Part shown: positions 18,953 through 26,747 of the stretch, in pieces | How the letters are laid out: every line of letters starts with the position of its first letter | Position numbering within the stretch: position 1 is the stretch's first letter | Virus record (IMG/VR): IMGVR_UViG_2913177423_000001 | Location: 19,415-83,414 of that record | DNA length: 64,000 nucleotides | From: a virus | Taxonomy: Duplodnaviria; Heunggongvirae; Uroviricota; Caudoviricetes | Direction: 5' to 3' (one strand) | The notes under the pieces: generated by a model | Told to the model about the DNA's origin: nothing | What the model saw: the letters and a program-made list of their open reading frames with translations, nothing else | The model's database searches: none | Translations under genes and position numbers: made by a program

Positions 18953-19705
18953 TTAATCAGCCTCCAGTGGCAATAACGCCTTAGCCATTTCATGAATCAG
19001 CATGGCATCAATGACGCCTAGCGTATGGCCCGGCTTAATCTTTAATGCGGCCTCAAGATAGCCTCTTTCCAGAGTGGTTTTTACGCTTTTCCTGGGCGCT
19101 TGTTGGGGACTATCCGGAAGATCCGGATGGTTGCCAGCCTCATAAGCTACCCGCAACCAGTGCATGAATGTTTCCGCAGACACACAACCACAGTCCACAT
19201 CGATTTTCCCGCGTTGCTGTTCCAGCCATTGCTCAAAATCTAACTTGCAAGCCTTACTTTCAAGTTCATCACCATTGAACTCGACTTTCTGCGACGCTAT
19301 GAGAGCGGCTTCGTACTGTTCGCGAGAGACAACTGACTGGTATTCATCGCTATCAAGGTCACGAATTGGAAGCTCAATCTCACGACAAAAATTCCGCCCA
19401 TAGAACTGGTCTTTTTTGTGGTCTGAGCCAAAAGCAAAAGTCGCGCATGGCGCCATTAAATTGACACTGAGTATGTGACAATAACTCATGCCATCAGGCC
19501 ATCCGCCGCACTTAGGCAACTCCTTCACTAATAAGTCGATCAGCTTCATTGTTTTACCATCTTTGCAAGTCGCCAAAGCCATTTGAGCAAGCGCCAATAC
19601 TTCATCTGCCGTATATCCAGCACCGTGACCATACATTTCTATTCGGGAAATAATCTCTGATATACGCTCTTTATTGATTCTGATCATAGTTCTATTTCCT
19701 TGCAT
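18953..19705 (-). CDS. hypothetical protein (about 245 aa)
   Basis: long minus-strand ORF; start may be internal ATG at 19687. Confidence 0.55.
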   Translation of the reverse strand: MQGNRTMIRINKERISEIISRIEMYGHGAGYTADEVLALAQMALATCKDGKTMKLIDLLVKELPKCGGWPDGMSYCHILSVNLMAPCATFAFGSDHKKDQFYGRNFCREIELPIRDLDSDEYQSVVSREQYEAALIASQKVEFNGDELESKACKLDFEQWLEQQRGKIDVDCGCVSAETFMHWLRVAYEAGNHPDLPDSPQQAPRKSVKTTLERGYLEAALKIKPGHTLGVIDAMLIHEMAKALLPLEAD

Positions 19706-20799: not shown

Positions 20800-21073
20800 T
20801 GATATTCACCTTTATTGCGTACACCTTTACCGGATTCTCTCCAAAGTGCGGATGTGTAATTGTCTTTATTTCATACCCTTCATACGGGACGTCTATTCTG
20901 CGACTGGAGTCGTCGCGCTTCGGATATCCCCTTGTGATAATCAGGCGGTCATACTCCCGGAACATAATTCGCTTATTCCAGTAGTCATTACACAGGCGAT
21001 ACTCTTCCGTTTTCTCTCCGCGAATGATGGCATCGAAGTATTCACCTTTAACGGCAAGTTGCAGGTTAGCCAC
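20792..21073 (-). CDS. ASCH/DUF3850-like domain protein
   Basis: GTG start 6 nt after AAGGAG RBS; LAVKGEYFDAIIRGEKTEEYR resembles ASCH/DUF3850 N-terminus. Confidence 0.45.
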   Translation of the reverse strand: MANLQLAVKGEYFDAIIRGEKTEEYRLCNDYWNKRIMFREYDRLIITRGYPKRDDSSRRIDVPYEGYEIKTITHPHFGENPVKVYAIKVNING

Positions 21074-21575
21074 GGTTAACTCCTTGCTGTGTGGCGTCGA
21101 GTAATAAATCCCACAACCGCTGAGAGCAATTTCCGCATGTACAGCGTTGACCCACAACGTTTATCGCGTTGCTGATTTCCGGCGTTACCTGTTTAGGAAC
21201 CATAACCCAACCATCCGGAGTTACCGGAGAGTTGCGCATTGCGACCTTTAATGCCTCATAGAAGCAACTTTTCAGATTGTTGAACTGACGCCCATTTAGA
21301 GGGCCGTGTTCAGTCAGCATGTTGTGTAATTTCCATGCCGCGTCGTTTACTTCGTTGGATGACAGGGGAGGCAGCTTGTAAGCCTGGCTTACAGGCTCGT
21401 CACCATTAAGCATGGCAGCGCGGAGTTTCTGTATCTCCCGTGCCATTATTGCGTCCTGACGAGGAGTGAACATATCACCTGCAATAATTCTGTTTAGTTC
21501 CTCGTCAGTGAACTCATAATCATCAGGAACATTGTTAACCTCAGCATAAAGAGGCTTTTTGGTAGAAATGGTCAT
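21066..21575 (-). CDS. hypothetical protein (169 aa)
   Basis: ORF in operon array, stop overlaps downstream start. Confidence 0.5.
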   Translation of the reverse strand: MTISTKKPLYAEVNNVPDDYEFTDEELNRIIAGDMFTPRQDAIMAREIQKLRAAMLNGDEPVSQAYKLPPLSSNEVNDAAWKLHNMLTEHGPLNGRQFNNLKSCFYEALKVAMRNSPVTPDGWVMVPKQVTPEISNAINVVGQRCTCGNCSQRLWDLLLDATQQGVNRG

Positions 21576-22198
21576 CGTAAAACACCCTCCACACTTACCA
21601 GTCCGTTCCGCAAAAGATAATCCATCGCCCTATCTGGTAATTTGCAATCAGGTTTTGCTTTTTTCAGTTGGCTGACCAATTGTTTAACCAGCATTGTTAA
21701 TTCGATAACCTGGTAGCGCGGCAATGGTGAATTATCGGATTTGTCCTGACTGTCTGCGCTGCATGAATGCCCTTCCAGCCAAGCCAATGCTTGTCGCATG
21801 AAATACGCAATATGTTTGCCGTGGTAATCGTCTTCATCGATGTGAAAAGCGATACTGCGGATGTATTCAATTGCGTTTTCAATGGCCTCCGGCGTTATCG
21901 GCGCTGACATATTTTGATTTTGGAATGCCAAGACGCGGCTGGCATCCTCAACACCTTTAACTGCATCTGCGCAGTAGTTATAGCGATTGCATTCCACTAA
22001 CTTCTGCTTGAGATTTTCAATTGCTTGCGCGATTTTATCCGGCACTGGCGGTTCTGCCCGGCCTTTCCAGCCTTCCCACATGGCAGCCATCATCACGAAC
22101 CAGGTGTTTCCACAGCCATCTTTTTTGTTATCAAAGAACCAGTCAGCGAACTCTAGGCTCATGCCATTTTGTTCTGCTATTTCATATCGATTATCCAT
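21572..22198 (-). CDS. hypothetical protein (208 aa) sharing a C-terminal module with ORF 25272-25895
   Basis: C-terminus LPDRAMDYLLRNGLVSVEGVL parallels LPNDAMNYLKSCGVVSEDAV. Confidence 0.55.
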   Translation of the reverse strand: MDNRYEIAEQNGMSLEFADWFFDNKKDGCGNTWFVMMAAMWEGWKGRAEPPVPDKIAQAIENLKQKLVECNRYNYCADAVKGVEDASRVLAFQNQNMSAPITPEAIENAIEYIRSIAFHIDEDDYHGKHIAYFMRQALAWLEGHSCSADSQDKSDNSPLPRYQVIELTMLVKQLVSQLKKAKPDCKLPDRAMDYLLRNGLVSVEGVLR

Positions 22199-22213
22199 TG
22201 TTCATCTCCTTGT

Positions 22214-22495
22214 TTAGCATGGCGGCGCGGCGTATAGCTTACGGGTCTGAACGCCTTCCCCAAGGCGTTTCTCTCCCTCGGCAAACCATTCGAAAGCACA
22301 TTCCCCGCAATCTTCCCATTCCCCCCATTCATCATTTTCTGCATCCCACTGGCGATACTGATATGCCACAGGCTCTGCTCCCAGCGATGCCAGCGCAATT
22401 TCATAAGCACGGCGCTCAATATTGTCTCTAACGTCCAGGCTACCGATTCGCTCTTTGATTTCTTTAATCAGTTCTTTGTCTGTAAAAGTGTTCAT
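22214..22495 (-). CDS. hypothetical acidic protein (93 aa)
   Basis: ORF in operon array. Confidence 0.45.
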   Translation of the reverse strand: MNTFTDKELIKEIKERIGSLDVRDNIERRAYEIALASLGAEPVAYQYRQWDAENDEWGEWEDCGECAFEWFAEGEKRLGEGVQTRKLYAAPPC

Positions 22496-22498
22496 AGG

Positions 22499-22687
22499 TT
22501 ATCCTCTAAGTGCCACAACGCGCACTTCCGGGTCAAAGGATGATGAATTTTCATCTGTAATATCAGCGACATGGACTACGAAATCGTTATAGTCACCCTC
22601 TGATTGGTCATAGCCCTGCCAGACCACGACAGCCTCAGGAGGCATTTTTCTGAGCTTGCTGATTAACTGCCTCACTGTCAGTGACAT
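22499..22687 (-). CDS. hypothetical small protein (62 aa)
   Basis: start moved to ATG abutting upstream stop (ATGA overlap). Confidence 0.4.
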   Translation of the reverse strand: MSLTVRQLISKLRKMPPEAVVVWQGYDQSEGDYNDFVVHVADITDENSSSFDPEVRVVALRG

Positions 22688-22688
22688 A

Positions 22689-23243
22689 TCACTCTCCTTT
22701 GATGCGAATGCCAGCGGCGCGGATAGATTTCCATTGTTCCCACATTCGGTTGAAGTCTGTGCCTGATAAGGTTGCGTTACGGTATCCAGTTTCGGTACGC
22801 AATCCTTCAAGCGTCGATTTGGAGATACAAATTGAATGCATTACCCATGATTCAAACAAATCACGCTCCCGAGCTTCGCAACTTTGCTTACTCATATATT
22901 CGATACGATCAGCCATCGCAGCGCACTCTTCAAAGTTGCTAAATGCCTTTCGCTCCCATTCAGCGCATTGTTTTCTAAGCTCTGCAATCAGCTTGTCTTT
23001 GCCTTCCAGCTCAACGCGCAGCTTCCCTACCGTTAGCGCAATATCCTCATTCTCCTGATCGCGGTGTTTGATGTATTGCTGGTTTCTTTCCCGTTCATCC
23101 AGAAGCGCTAGCACAATGTGTGGCGTTATCAAGGACTCAAATTCGGTAACAGCTTGCTCACCTCGCTTGTAATTCTTAATCCCACCTAAATTTTTCGCGT
23201 TCTGTGCCGCCTCACGCAGTGCCTGGTAATTAATTTCGCTCAC
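22689..23243 (-). CDS. Ead/Ea22-like coiled-coil protein
   Basis: coiled-coil core KLRVELEGKDKLIAELRKQ shared with paralogs upstream. Confidence 0.5.
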   Translation of the reverse strand: MSEINYQALREAAQNAKNLGGIKNYKRGEQAVTEFESLITPHIVLALLDERERNQQYIKHRDQENEDIALTVGKLRVELEGKDKLIAELRKQCAEWERKAFSNFEECAAMADRIEYMSKQSCEARERDLFESWVMHSICISKSTLEGLRTETGYRNATLSGTDFNRMWEQWKSIRAAGIRIKGE

Positions 23244-23947
23244 TGGCTGCCTCCTTTGCGAAGCTCTGCGGCAAAGTCAGTGGCATGTTCACCGAGTAGT
23301 TTCCAGTTATCGCGTATATCAGATGCAAGCGACTGTTCGGATTTTGAGTTACATTTCTGTGCAAACATCTCCACCCCCTGCGCCCGCACTTCAGCCAGGA
23401 AAGCGCCAGTAGCAGGAGTGTCAATGCAAACACTGTCACGAAGGATGAAGAACGCATTAAGCATTCCTCTTTCTGGTACATCGTCCTGGCATTCCTCATA
23501 TGCAGCCAATGCATCCATCATTTTCTGACCGAATTGCGGAGGTTGTGCAGATTTCAGTGCTATATTCTCCGCCGCCAGCGTCGCGCGATTGCTCTCCAGT
23601 TCTGCAATGCGCTGTTTTGCGGCATCAAGTTCAATCGACAATTTTTCCAACTGCTCTTTATGCTTTTTGTATGCCTGATATGCGTGCCAGGACTGTCCTT
23701 TGCGCACACTTTCAGTAATATCAGAAATCTGTTCTGGTGTTAGCGTGGTCAGTGGCTGCGCCGGGAAAATCAGCACTTTCCCGGCATCCCAATCAAAACC
23801 CGCCTGAATTGACTGAACCTCAACTGATGGTGTTGAACCAATGCTACCTGGTGAATGGATAACAATCGCCATGTCCATATCACGATGCTGGCAGTGTTTG
23901 TTGGACAAGATACGATTCACCAACTCAGAAAATTTGGAAAATTTCAT
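23240..23947 (-). CDS. Ead/Ea22-like protein, paralog A
   Basis: [14 protein letters not shown] and [14 protein letters not shown] match paralog 24267-24968; start at ATG overlapping upstream stop. Confidence 0.55.
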
Positions 23948-24270
23948 GCTGATTCCCTTTGCTCTTCTTGGATAATGTTGTTGCAATCTTTCACGCACTC
24001 GTCACAGATGAAAACGTTGTCCCCGGCAATTAACTTTTTGACGGTGTGCTGGGATTTATTGCAGAAGCTGCAATAAAGCGTTGGACTGGCTGATACGGAT
24101 GGTGCTCCGGATGTCAGCCGCGCGATGTCGTCCTTGCGGCGCAACATCACACGGCAGCACTCAGCAAGTTTCTCCGGGGAGATTCCTTCCTCCGTGGCGA
24201 GTGCCTCCAGTCGTTCAAGCACGTGGAAGGCTTTTTCCTGGGTAAATGCAGAATGTGATATGGCCATCAT
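23944..24270 (-). CDS. small protein with C-terminal ClpX-type zinc-binding domain (C4 zinc ribbon)
   Basis: [39 protein letters not shown] closely matches ClpX N-terminal ZBD. Confidence 0.65.
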
Positions 24271-24968
24271 CTCTCCCCTTCAAAGTTCGGGCGCAGGCAG
24301 GATTGTCCTTTACGAAGCAGGGCTGCGAACCTGTCAGCCGCATCCGCGCAAGCAGAAGCAACGGAATCAAAAAATGGATCATCTCCGGTATCGCGCATCG
24401 TCAAAGCGAATGCCTCCAATCCCTGAGCCTGTATTTCTACAAGATAAGCCTCAGATATAGTGCTTTTCGCTTCACCTAACTCGTTATGAGCTATGTTCGC
24501 TACACATGCGATGTCTATATCTGGATGATTAATTGGGAGATGGCTAAGAATTGCCTCAAGTGCTGCTTTTTTGTTTTGGCATTCCGCCACCAGCGCCCCG
24601 CTATTGCTTTCCAGCTCTGCAATACACTTTTTAGCGGCCTCCAGCTCAACACGCAGCTTCTCAAGCGTTAGGGCCATCTCCACTTTCTCGTCCAGCAGTT
24701 CAATCACATCAGGATCGCTACCATCAACTACTGATATGCGCGAATTTTTGTAATGCTCGTCAGCATAAGTTCGTCCAGTTTTGAAGCGTCCGTCAGCCTC
24801 CATGCCGGAACAGGCATAAACAACATGTGATCCAGATATGCGTTCCATTGACATTTCCTCGCCACAAACAGAGCATTTAGGCGCTGGTTTCGGTGAATAA
24901 CGTTCACGTAACGGATAGTAAAGCTCGATCTCCGCCAGTTGCTCTGGCGTTAAACCTTCAGACTTCAT
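24267..24968 (-). CDS. Ead/Ea22-like protein, paralog B (N-terminal Cys4 zinc ribbon)
   Basis: CSVCGEEMS...YACSG motif plus [14 protein letters not shown] coiled coil. Confidence 0.55.
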
Positions 24969-25275
24969 GCACTCTCCTTTCGAAATAAACGTACTGATTA
25001 ATCATGCCCAGGGGCATTTCGAGTTTTTCCGCGATCTCACGGCGGGGAACGCCACACTGATGAAGCTGCCGCGCCAGCTCTATATCGCTCTGCCGATATT
25101 TGGCTGACTGGTGAAAGTCACCTTTCAGAATCATTCTGATCCCCAGTTCCCGCGCTTTAGTCCTGACAGCATCTCCGGTACGCCCGATCAGCCTCCCGAT
25201 ACTCTCGACTGTCATAGTTCCGGCGCACTGGCGGAGTATCATGATTTCTGCCCTTCTCCATCCCCGCCATCTCAC
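24958..25275 (-). CDS. putative HTH DNA-binding protein
   Basis: two HTH-like segments (TMTVESIGRLIGRTGDAVRTKARELG; GVPRREIAEKLEMP). Confidence 0.5.
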   Translation of the reverse strand: MRWRGWRRAEIMILRQCAGTMTVESIGRLIGRTGDAVRTKARELGIRMILKGDFHQSAKYRQSDIELARQLHQCGVPRREIAEKLEMPLGMINQYVYFERRVHEV

Positions 25276-25895
25276 GCTGACATCCTCTGAGACATAAACT
25301 CCACAAAACGAACTGCATCTTCAGAAACAACGCCGCATGACTTCAGATAATTCATTGCGTCATTAGGTAGCGGATTAGTTGGTTCGGCATTTGCCAGGGG
25401 TTGAGATAAACGCGTGATTAATTTGACCATTCTCCGCTGCCGGAGGTTGTATCCTTCAGCTAAAGACAGGTAACTGGAAAGGGTATTGCTTAAGCGGGCG
25501 CGAAGCTGATCCGTGCCGTGACATTCAATAGCAACATCACGTAACGCATCGACCAGTTCACGGTAAATATGCGCAGCCATTCTGCAATCTGAGTCAGACG
25601 GCGCTTCATAAATTACCGTCAGCTCCAGTTTTTCAGCCAGGGCGTGTTCTGCTCGTGCTCCTGCGGACGCTTCCCAGCCATTAAGCAGATAGATAGCATC
25701 AGCAGAACGCACCATTGCCAGGCAAATATCCATGTATTCGCTCTGACAAAGGCCACCAGGTAATACCGCCGGATTAAGAACGATATGCCCTTCAGCCATC
25801 AGCTCGCTCGCTTTCGCATTAAACGCCGCGCGGTTGTAATCTGGATAACCAGTCATCGGACCCGCGATGTAAATTTTCAAAACACGTTTCACCAT
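25272..25895 (-). CDS. DUF4406-like protein (nucleoside 2-deoxyribosyltransferase-like fold) with C-terminal extension
   Basis: N-terminus KIYIAGPMTGYPDYNRAAF ... YLLNGWEASAGARAEHALAEKLELTV; start moved to ATG 25895 overlapping leader ORF stop. Confidence 0.55.
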   Translation of the reverse strand: MVKRVLKIYIAGPMTGYPDYNRAAFNAKASELMAEGHIVLNPAVLPGGLCQSEYMDICLAMVRSADAIYLLNGWEASAGARAEHALAEKLELTVIYEAPSDSDCRMAAHIYRELVDALRDVAIECHGTDQLRARLSNTLSSYLSLAEGYNLRQRRMVKLITRLSQPLANAEPTNPLPNDAMNYLKSCGVVSEDAVRFVEFMSQRMSA

Positions 25896-26050
25896 CAAAA
25901 TTTCCCCAGCATCGTGACGCAAAACATAAGCACTGCAAAAAGCTCAATACCAAGCTCAAGTAGCGCCAACGCGCCGAAAAACAGCACATAAAACAGGCCG
26001 ATCTCATTCACAGGTGGCTGGTGGATCGCACTTAAGGCTATAAGCATCAT
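25895..26050 (-). CDS. hypothetical small hydrophobic leader protein (51 aa)
   Basis: GGAGGA RBS then ATGATG; two TM-like segments; stop overlaps downstream start; not in ORF track (below cutoff). Confidence 0.3.
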   Translation of the reverse strand: MMLIALSAIHQPPVNEIGLFYVLFFGALALLELGIELFAVLMFCVTMLGKF

Positions 26051-26086
26051 GTCCTCCAAACAGTAAACAGCGACTGATATTAATGT

Positions 26087-26123
26087 TTTGTGTTAGAAAA
26101 TCAATTTTGAATATCTAACAAAT
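26087..26123. promoter_or_regulatory. inverted pair of operator-like motifs between divergent operons
   Basis: TTTGTGTTAGAAAATCAATTTT and inverted GAATATCTAACAAAT. Confidence 0.55.
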
Positions 26124-26168
26124 ATGATCAATCATAAAAAAATCGCTGATAAGTAAGAGGCAGCCAAC

Positions 26169-26747
26169 ATGCAGAGACAGAGTTATTGGGAGAAACAGAG
26201 ACAAAAAGCCATGCAAAAACTGGCTGATCCGGAATGGCGGGAAGAGCAAAGGGCAAAACGTCTTCAGCAGGCTCAACGCCAGCAGCAACGCGCAAGGGAA
26301 AAAGCCGCATCGCCTGAATATCGTCAAAAGAAACTTGAAAAAGTGAGGCAAAGTGAACAGCGCAGAAGAGAGAGGGCGGCGTCAGCCCTCCCCAAAAAAA
26401 CGCGCCCGTCACGCGGATTAAAAGGGAGATCACTCACAGCAGAAGAGCGCCGGATACAGGAGGCTATAGGCAAACTCCCCTGTATTGCCTGCCATCTTCA
26501 CGGGAAGCATAGCCCTGTCGTATCTCTCCACCACATATTTGGCAGAACGGCTAAAGATGCCCATAAATACGTTCTCCCTTTGTGTAAATGGCACCACCAG
26601 CACGCAGCGCCAGCAGAGATCCGCGAACAATATCCCTGGTTGGTTCCTGTTCATGCTGATGGAAAAATAGGCGGGAAAGCAGATTTTATACGGCACAATG
26701 CCGAAGAGATGACGCTCTATCAGACGGTGCAAGAAATGGTGAATTAA
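26169..26747 (+). CDS. ref: Ref-like HNH endonuclease (recombination enhancement function)
   Basis: basic/Gln-rich N-terminal half; C-terminal HNH-like CIACHLHGKHSPVVSLHHI ... LPLCKWHHQ; operator upstream as for P1 ref. Confidence 0.7.
   Translation: MQRQSYWEKQRQKAMQKLADPEWREEQRAKRLQQAQRQQQRAREKAASPEYRQKKLEKVRQSEQRRRERAASALPKKTRPSRGLKGRSLTAEERRIQEAIGKLPCIACHLHGKHSPVVSLHHIFGRTAKDAHKYVLPLCKWHHQHAAPAEIREQYPWLVPVHADGKIGGKADFIRHNAEEMTLYQTVQEMVN

Follow-up and report, generated by a model that had tools for sequence, protein, structure and literature searches.

The closest described relatives of the element studied here are the C-terminal domains (CTDs) of the Ead/Ea22 proteins. Ea22 proteins share an N-terminus and a coiled coil and carry alternative portable CTDs, which are dimeric whatever their sequence (PMC10834534). 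We analyzed a 64,000-nucleotide stretch of Caudoviricetes DNA (positions 19,415 to 83,414 of IMG/VR record IMGVR_UViG_2913177423_000001; hereafter the window), in which two open reading frames (ORFs), A and B, carry a common module of ~45 residues at or near their C-termini (the tail). Like the Ead/Ea22 CTDs, namely the lambda CTD and the DUF551 domain of the Stx-phage variants (PMC10834534), the tail follows a variable N-terminus and a coiled coil, belongs to non-essential accessory genes, and is swapped in mosaic fashion. It has no sequence relation to either domain, however, and it is smaller and predicted to be all-helical rather than mixed α-β; unlike the Ea22 CTDs, it is found on enzymes as well, and beyond the exo-xis region it turns up in nin-like regions and on P1/D6 phage-plasmids. 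The lambda Ea22 CTD, for which a nuclear magnetic resonance structure has been solved, was not matched when the tail profile was searched against all PDB sequences, a search that gave nothing significant (best E 0.14), and no Pfam match to DUF551 (PF04448) was found in A or B. HisG N-terminal matches from the PDB search (E 0.14) were rejected as tail relatives because they are insignificant. The module is unnamed and is a new unit of a known type, the portable CTDs of mosaic phage accessory proteins.

Several other described families and sequences bear on the tail. The rear half of A, tail included, is 82 to 95% identical to P22/lambdoid "Eaa" proteins (P0289, P0307). At least five different PHROG families (660, 924, 8171, 30109, and 60) have the tail as their C-terminal end, and it aligns to the extreme C-terminus of the profiles of phrog_660, phrog_924, phrog_8171, and phrog_60; these are whole-protein clusters of unknown function, and none defines the tail as a unit. 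No model in Pfam or NCBIfam covers it. The body of B is a clear member of the DUF4406 family (PF14359), with the expected fold; the family domain spans ~95 residues, and the hairpin and tail of B are an add-on to it. Susskind and Botstein and later comparative papers on the modular theory of lambdoid phage evolution reportedly described conserved gene-boundary "linker" sequences, which are like the tail in forming a conserved stretch at a gene end with unrelated DNA on both sides and with the translation signals of the next gene. Unlike a short junction of non-coding or neutral DNA, the tail is coding sequence with strong purifying selection on the peptide.

The accessory early genes of lambdoid, P22-like, N15-like, and P1/D6-like phages, which are abundant in Escherichia coli, Shigella, Salmonella, and Klebsiella, are nearly all annotated as hypothetical. 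A 45-residue piece present in more than 1600 protein clusters, kept by selection and lying outside Pfam and NCBIfam, offers annotators a new domain, and it is one small bait that could reveal common ground among many of these proteins. Its carriers include nucleotide-acting enzymes, which may bear on lysogeny control or counter-defence. It is also a clean, quantifiable case of mosaicism inside genes, where the unit being exchanged appears to bring its own translational junction.

The tails of A and B are homologous

The first-pass annotation had located both ORFs correctly, each on the minus strand, and the motif it quoted, LP..AM.YL...G.VS.E.V, is found in both proteins. The relevant features are as follows.

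21572..22198, minus strand: ORF A, 208 amino acids (aa), a mosaic Eaa-like protein ending ...KLPDRAMDYLLRNGLVSVEGVLR at the stop codon
25272..25895, minus strand: ORF B, 207 aa counted from the ATG, containing ...PLPNDAMNYLKSCGVVSEDAVRFVEFMSQRMSA and ending ...RRMVKLITRLSQPLANAEPTNPLPNDAMNYLKSCGVVSEDAVRFVEFMSQRMSA at the stop codon
21575..21712, minus strand: canonical tail module of A, residues 163-208 (YQVIELTMLVKQLVSQLKKAKPDCKLPDRAMDYLLRNGLVSVEGVLR); family hidden Markov model (HMM) E 6e-27
25308..25445, minus strand: divergent tail module of B, residues 151-196 (LRQRRMVKLITRLSQPLANAEPTNPLPNDAMNYLKSCGVVSEDAVR)
25275..25307, minus strand: extension of B after the module, 11 residues (FVEFMSQRMSA), in DNA with an AGAGGA site and a GTGA overlap

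That both proteins end with the motif is true of A, where the stop codon follows two residues past it, and only approximately true of B, which continues for 12 residues past the final V of the motif (RFVEFMSQRMSA). In the family alignment R196 of B corresponds to the canonical final R, leaving an 11-residue extension beyond the module.

BLASTP aligned residues 167-206 of A with residues 156-195 of B at 15 of 40 identities (38%; E 2e-5 for the pair) and returned no other significant similarity between the two bodies outside the tails. The Smith-Waterman score of the two tails was 63, against a mean of 30 (standard deviation 4.9) over 5000 shuffles, of which 0 to 2 reached 63 (Gumbel p ~1e-4). 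By itself a pairwise p of this size is only suggestive or borderline, since a 64-kb window holds a few thousand protein pairs. The homology was clinched independently with a family HMM built from 134 tails of other proteins, with B-type tails excluded, and run with filters off against all 1174 six-frame segments of the window. A was recovered at E 6e-27 and B at 1.8e-7, with the next best segment at 1.2; the profile phrog_660 also matched the tail of A (E 5e-22) and the isolated tail of B (E 0.0024). Sequence comparison thus confirms that the two C-terminal regions are homologous copies of one module, A being canonical and B divergent. The DNA of the two tails is only ~47% identical, so they are old relatives and not the product of a recent copy within this genome; recent exchange between them is ruled out on the same grounds. 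No third tail copy was found in the window. Residues 52-69 of the minus-strand ORF 22499..22810 (MSLTVRQLISKLRKMPPE) bear a weak likeness to helix 1 of the tail and the start of its loop, which is not significant (HMM E 1.2).

Predicted structure and distribution of the module

The module reads roughly ELTMLVKQL..L+KAKPD.KLP..AMDYL.R.GLISVEDVLR and is predicted to begin with an amphipathic helix (helix 1, pattern LxxLVxxLxxxL), from which a loop containing Pro (KPDxKLP) leads to a second helix (AMDYLxR) and then to a short extended stretch. The AlphaFold2 model of A places a helix at residues 162-180, the loop at 181-188, and a second helix at 189-197, followed by the extended end; in B the corresponding elements are at 154-169, 170-176, and 177-186, in a register that agrees with the sequence alignment. 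The predicted local distance difference test score (pLDDT) is low throughout the tails (42-72; ~50-72 in A and below 50 past residue 170 in B), and the fold is therefore a statement about secondary structure only. Neither tail packs confidently on its body, as would be expected if it needs a partner. In the Ea22-like carriers ST64B Sb32, FSL SP-016, phiAH14a gp48, and P0091, helix 1 runs directly on from the coiled coil.

The same tail was found widely on other phage proteins. A tblastn search with the last 52 residues of A placed it at the extreme end of N15 gp45 (139 aa) and of Salmonella phage ST64B Sb32 (205 aa, Ead/Ea22-like), and it is likewise terminal in ArgO145 gp10 (114 aa) and in URC10291 of vB_EcoS-673R7 (167 aa). 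An earlier profile search for homologues had returned only proteins of up to 95 aa, which told little about bodies, and an exhaustive HMMER search with an 18-tail profile against 1.84 billion cluster representatives (50% identity level) was used instead. It recovered 1628 representatives with the tail at E ≤1e-3 and 600 at ≤1e-10. The match reaches the last residue in 149 of the 150 best representatives, whose lengths range from 51 to 395 aa, and 134 of 135 new representatives end in LR. IMG/VR yielded 452 tail loci with a narrow tail alignment as query, and a scan of genome contigs gave only 9. The settings include the int-xis/ea region (ST64B), P1/D6 phage-plasmids, and nin-like regions after replication genes (N15, FSL SP-016, Rac-like, and Pseudomonas phiAH14a). 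PADLOC returned nothing relevant to the tail, and no link to known defence systems was found. Judged by these searches, the module is a very widespread portable unit and no local peculiarity of this operon. Two contigs binned into a "Segatella copri" metagenome-assembled genome (L085, L090) carry enterobacterial-type tail genes with 57-78% identity to the tail of A; the L085 protein is identical to ArgO145 gp10, and both are probably binning contaminants from an E. coli prophage.

Distant members (Kluyvera, Erwinia, Pseudomonas phage phiAH14a gp48, and metagenomic phages) keep helix 1, the loop, the AMDYL helix, and GL...R, with 4-40 residues beyond this core. An LR ending at the exact C-terminus, as in A, is a trait of a subgroup and does not define the family, because B and the Kluyvera, Erwinia, and phiAH14a members extend further. 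In the small metagenomic carriers of 71-95 aa, the module is preceded by a single N-terminal helix; the gene for one such carrier is flanked by a PD-(D/E)XK nuclease gene and small ORFs, and PolA, an SNF2 helicase, and a nucleoside deoxyribosyltransferase are encoded in the same cluster. These forms are better evidence for an autonomous protein than the stand-alone 70-82 aa ORFs of Erwinia and Kluyvera, whose value as proof was weakened; the Kluyvera ORF looks like a frameshifted body-plus-tail gene and was not relied on.

Bodies that carry the tail

The module had been described as appended to different catalytic bodies. That the bodies are unrelated is borne out, A being Eaa-like and B a DUF4406 protein, whereas the word catalytic would suit B and some carriers elsewhere (PF04447, MazG, ASCH) but not A, in which no catalytic domain is recognizable. 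When the last 48 residues were cut off and at least 70% of the longer body was required to align, 132 representatives fell into 49 body groups, many of them still linked by other small shared pieces. Pfam scans of 135 carriers identified 16 Ead_Ea22 proteins, 4 PF04447 dATP/dGTP pyrophosphohydrolases, and one each of MazG, ASCH, and DUF3850; the majority had no match.

A, which is 100% identical to P0212 of Escherichia sp. E14S1, is assembled from pieces. Matches to phrog_25300 and, weakly, to DUF5490 cover residues 1-67, a phrog_14306 match covers residues 50-93, and residues 137-208 correspond to the C-terminal end of phrog_660/924; the N-terminal DUF5490 match, which is below threshold, is the only Pfam domain hit on A. 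Residues 1 to ~150 elsewhere carry a DUF551 end instead of the tail (P0214, P0216), and DUF551 stands in the tail's place on the A-like bodies P0214 to P0221. Conversely, residues ~98 to 208 are found behind at least six different N-termini (P0222, P0223, P0225, P0236, P0241, and P0289). Two UniRef entries named "Eaa protein" (P0289, P0307) are 83% identical over 61-62% of A. At the joins of varied N-terminal pieces to the common rear half (P0222-P0326) there is a Pro-rich motif, (L/F)Y(T/A/M)(A/T)PP(A/V)P, which may act as a linker between modules or as a joint favored by recombination.

The minus-strand ORF 22214..22495, which adjoins A, also carries the Pro-rich motif at its end (...RKLYAAPPC). 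Its N-terminal 42 residues (MNTFTDKELIKEIKERIGSLDVRDNIERRAYEIALASLGAEP) are the starting module of YfdT from the CPS-53 prophage of E. coli K-12, and in P0222, P0223, and P0232 this module continues straight into the rear half of A, so that two genes here are one gene elsewhere. Over-expression of YfdS or YfdT together with YfdQ and YfdR inhibits replication initiation (PMC4776307). No link from the tail to E. coli K-12 was found; CPS-53 YfdT shares only the N-terminal module of 22214..22495 and lacks the tail.

The description of B as DUF4406-like holds, with Pfam PF14359 scoring 118 bits against a cut-off of 22. Its body comprises two parts.

25608..25877, minus strand: DUF4406 domain of B, residues 7-96; Pfam E 2.5e-34
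25452..25595, minus strand: middle helical hairpin of B, residues 101-148

The AlphaFold2 model of the body has pLDDT mostly above 90 over residues 21-90 and 84-89 at both edges. Foldseek matched it to 2a0k, 8pqt, 6qai, DNPH1, and MilB over ~100 aligned residues, and the predicted fold is that of the nucleoside 2-deoxyribosyltransferase/DNPH1/MilB-like proteins. The whole architecture of B is phrog_5781, which occurs on P1/D6-like phage-plasmids. DUF4406 is mostly found alone in proteins of 113-120 aa or with unrelated N- or C-terminal extensions, and the combination of DUF4406, hairpin, and tail is confined to proteins of 198-207 aa in the phage-plasmid subgroup, encoded on contigs of ~85-95 kb, a size typical of phage-plasmids. 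The hairpin matches parts of six more PHROG families (21459, 20174, 21749, 38634, 15065, and 29262), which indicates that B is made of at least three shuffled pieces.

Two further observations concern the parts of B. P0142 is a natural deletion variant in which an in-frame fusion joins DUF4406 and hairpin to the rear half of the downstream helix-turn-helix protein (QSDIELARQLHQCGVPRREIAEKLEMPLGMINQYVYFERRV), with complete loss of the tail. At L044-type loci (~31 of 97), the operon of a canonical tail carrier also includes, 1.6-2 kb upstream of it, a DUF4406 gene of ~100 aa that stands alone; the parts fused in B are thus often neighbors elsewhere, though most cases belong to one prophage type and are not independent.

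Selection, exchange, and the gene-end junction

The ratio of nonsynonymous to synonymous substitution (dN/dS) was computed from 24 distinct tail DNA sequences, which gave 224 pairs with a proportion of synonymous differences (pS) above 0.15. The median dN/dS of the tail was 0.145. Some pairs approach synonymous saturation (pS 0.70-0.74) yet keep 75-90% of their residues, which identifies the peptide as what selection maintains. Exchange was examined in 286 pairs of dereplicated contexts with tail DNA at least 93% identical; the 150 nucleotides (nt) upstream were unrelated in 84 of these pairs and the 150 nt downstream in 149. Near-identical tail DNA between unrelated flanks indicates that the tail moves by recombination, and recombination with joints at both module edges accounts for the many different bodies.

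The 3' ends of genes A and B overlap the starts of the genes that follow.

21066..21575, minus strand: gene downstream of A, 169 aa (MTISTKKPLYAE...), whose ATG overlaps the A stop codon
24958..25275, minus strand: gene downstream of B, 105 aa, helix-turn-helix, phrog_323, whose GTG start overlaps the B stop codon
21572..21590, minus strand: 3' end of gene A, last 19 nt (GGAGGGTGTTTTACGATGA), with a GGAGG Shine-Dalgarno-like site ~10 nt before the ATGA overlap

All 82 enterobacterial tails end ...G GAG GAT GTT TTA CGA TGA or in a close variant, with GGAGGA ~10 nt before a stop/start overlap that is ATGA in 73 and GTGA in 9. Among the 24 DNA variants, which are phylogenetically related so that counts overstate their independence, the junction Glu codon is GAG in 24/24 and the Glu codon at the start of the module GAA in 22/24; the junction Asp is GAT in 18/18, the stop codon TGA in 24/24, and the last Arg only CGA, CGG, or AGA. 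Synonymous constraint is limited to the last ~6 codons. In B, where the module lies away from the junction, the matching Glu codon is GAA, and the gene has its own AGAGGA...GTGA junction 11 codons later. The codon pattern suggests that, in the enterobacterial subgroup, the last six codons double as a Shine-Dalgarno site and NTGA overlap, a candidate coupling signal by which the module would bring a ready translational-coupling junction for any downstream gene. We read the end of the module as having been shaped into such a signal, and the signal not as the reason for the module's existence.

In 30 distinct downstream contexts, the overlapping ORF was at least 30 aa long in 13, a conserved 27-aa hydrophobic ORF was present in 9, and there was none in ~6; N15 has an annotated 18-aa gp45.1 at this position. 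The 27-aa hydrophobic ORF (MTWPEAFTTVGIAMAVALVVYSICR...) starts at the ATGA overlap (L003, L004, L027, L030, L032, and others), is unannotated in those records, and may be a real small membrane protein. At the IMG/VR loci L018 and L025, a TTA to TAA change two codons before the usual end (...AEGV, stop, R) makes the protein 2 residues shorter and leaves the downstream ATG in place, together with a GGAGGG variant of the Shine-Dalgarno site.

Possible roles of the module

The module is best described as an interchangeable C-terminal piece of the mosaic Ead/Ea22/Eaa-type accessory proteins found in temperate phages that infect Enterobacterales; more distant versions occur in Pseudomonas and metagenomic phages. 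We favor a role for the module as a protein-protein interaction element. Its predicted helix-loop-helix would form part of an intermolecular helical bundle, most probably by packing against another copy of itself, and self-association would cap or dimerise the carrier in the manner of the other portable Ea22 CTDs. Enzymes of the nucleoside 2-deoxyribosyltransferase and MazG families are oligomers. Self-association of the tail into a small helical bundle is our leading but tentative proposal, rated somewhat short of an even chance.

Several observations weigh against this proposal. The conservation of many polar residues (E, K, P, K, D, Y, G, and R) exceeds what a simple dimerising hairpin needs, and nearly body-less carriers of 70-95 aa occur in phage replication gene clusters; both are a better fit to a specific external partner. 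The AlphaFold2 confidence is also low in both tails. As to the junction, the overlapping ATG in the commonest context opens only a 3-codon ORF (MNI, stop), and the arrangement is not specific to the module, 4-nt overlaps being common across these operons and present also at the Kluyvera and Erwinia extensions.

A possible though less favored alternative, which we rate only slightly below self-association, is that the module is a docking or address tag, as the first-pass annotation had suggested, binding one common conserved host or phage partner and so bringing very different bodies to one place. One strongly conserved peptide (dN/dS 0.15) with many nearly invariant polar positions on numerous unrelated bodies, several of them nucleotide-acting (DUF4406, PF04447, MazG), would fit docking, as would the low-confidence monomer models and the near stand-alone forms in replication clusters beside PolA, the PD-(D/E)XK nuclease, and the SNF2 helicase. 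The strict C-terminal position (149/150) would suit recognition of a free C-terminus, but B and the distant members have 11-27 residues past the module, so that a free ...LR-COOH cannot be essential. Docking is further disfavored in that no PDB or PADLOC relative was found, only a single tail copy is present per ±3 kb locus, and no gene is conserved near the tail, the best being the DUF4406 gene at 32 of 97 loci, mostly of one prophage type. A phage-encoded partner nearby was rejected on this basis, no window gene co-occurring with the tail in more than one-third of the 97 loci. A host partner might be a protein of replication, nucleotide metabolism, or proteostasis. The narrower proposal that the tail is an address label read by a single conserved host hub, such as a replisome or nucleotide-pool component, we consider unlikely; if it were true, temperate phages would share a plug-in targeting system with a built-in expression junction, in which recombination hangs the label on enzymes or coiled-coil effectors, such as nucleotide glycosidases, pyrophosphohydrolases, ASCH proteins, and Ea22-like regulators, for delivery to that hub.

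Other protein-level roles are improbable, whether as a regulatory or autoinhibitory lid, a stability or degradation signal, or a nucleic-acid-binding helix-loop-helix. The apparently flexible attachment of the tail, with its low pLDDT and lack of confident packing on the body, would be compatible with them, and the operon of A and B also encodes a ClpX zinc-finger-like protein (23944..24270). Nevertheless, such a gene accompanies the tail at only 1 of 97 loci, the ...VLR and ...MSA ends are unlike the ClpX tags of ssrA (LAA) and MuA (RRKKAI), and the net charge of the consensus appears near neutral.

It is a little less probable still that the tail is mainly a DNA-level element, a gene-boundary cassette for recombination with a ribosome-binding site and start overlap, in which the peptide has little weight. 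Identical tail DNA does lie between unrelated flanks, the module is almost always at a gene end, GGAGGA and NTGA are kept at synonymous sites, and B, whose module is off the junction, has GAA and not GAG. The dN/dS result makes a DNA-only role unlikely, however, since the peptide is kept where synonymous sites are near saturation. Residue identity between the tails of A and B is 38%, and base identity only ~47%, synonymous constraint covers only the last ~6 codons, distant members hold the peptide core away from the gene end, and the commonest context has no real gene at the overlap. Finally, chance resemblance of two amphipathic C-terminal helices, which the shortness of the match (40 residues, 38% identity) and a pairwise p uncompelling across the protein pairs of the window might have allowed, is effectively refuted by the independent family HMM, the phrog_660 match to B, and the terminal or near-terminal position of both tails, whose predicted helix-loop-helix elements fall in matching register, and is highly improbable.

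Genomic setting and neighboring genes

The source region is P1/D6-like phage-plasmid DNA, 86-93% identical to E. coli plasmids of 75-96 kb and to phage D6. A and B both lie in a single long, tightly packed leftward string of genes that also holds three Ead/Ea22-like or coiled-coil proteins and ClpX-zinc-finger-like, helix-turn-helix, and ASCH proteins; the Ref nuclease gene (26169..26747) is in divergent orientation. Pfam PF13935 (Ead_Ea22) matches the neighboring ORFs 22689..23243 and 24267..24968, and has no match in A or B. The designation of the string as an early operon was not confirmed: upstream of B, neither a sigma-70-like promoter nor the P1 C1 operator consensus (ATTGCTCTAATAAATTT) was matched.

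Just upstream of B is a small hydrophobic ORF (25895..26050, minus strand; ~51 aa, MMLIALSAIHQPPVNEIGLFYVLFFGALALLELGIELFAVLMFCVTMLGKF) with a GGAGGA site, whose TGA shares one base with the ATG of B (TGATG) and whose equivalent in D6 is orf88. The leftward operon probably starts with this ORF, after an AT-rich stretch at ~26080-26140. The minus-strand ORF 23944..24270 encodes a 108-aa protein with a C-terminal ClpX-type C4 zinc finger (Pfam E 6.6e-18); the D6 counterpart seems to carry the label "carboxylate--amine ligase," apparently in error. The coiled-coil/Ea22-like ORFs 23240..23998 and 24267..24968, both on the minus strand, differ in their N-terminal parts and share another rear module, LEKL.(V/I)EL(D/E)AAK..IAELESN followed by ...(F/Y)L.E(V/I).AQG(V/L)E.FA...AA.LRKG (BLASTP E 2e-9 over ~135 residues), and are a second instance of shared C-terminal modules in the operon of A and B.

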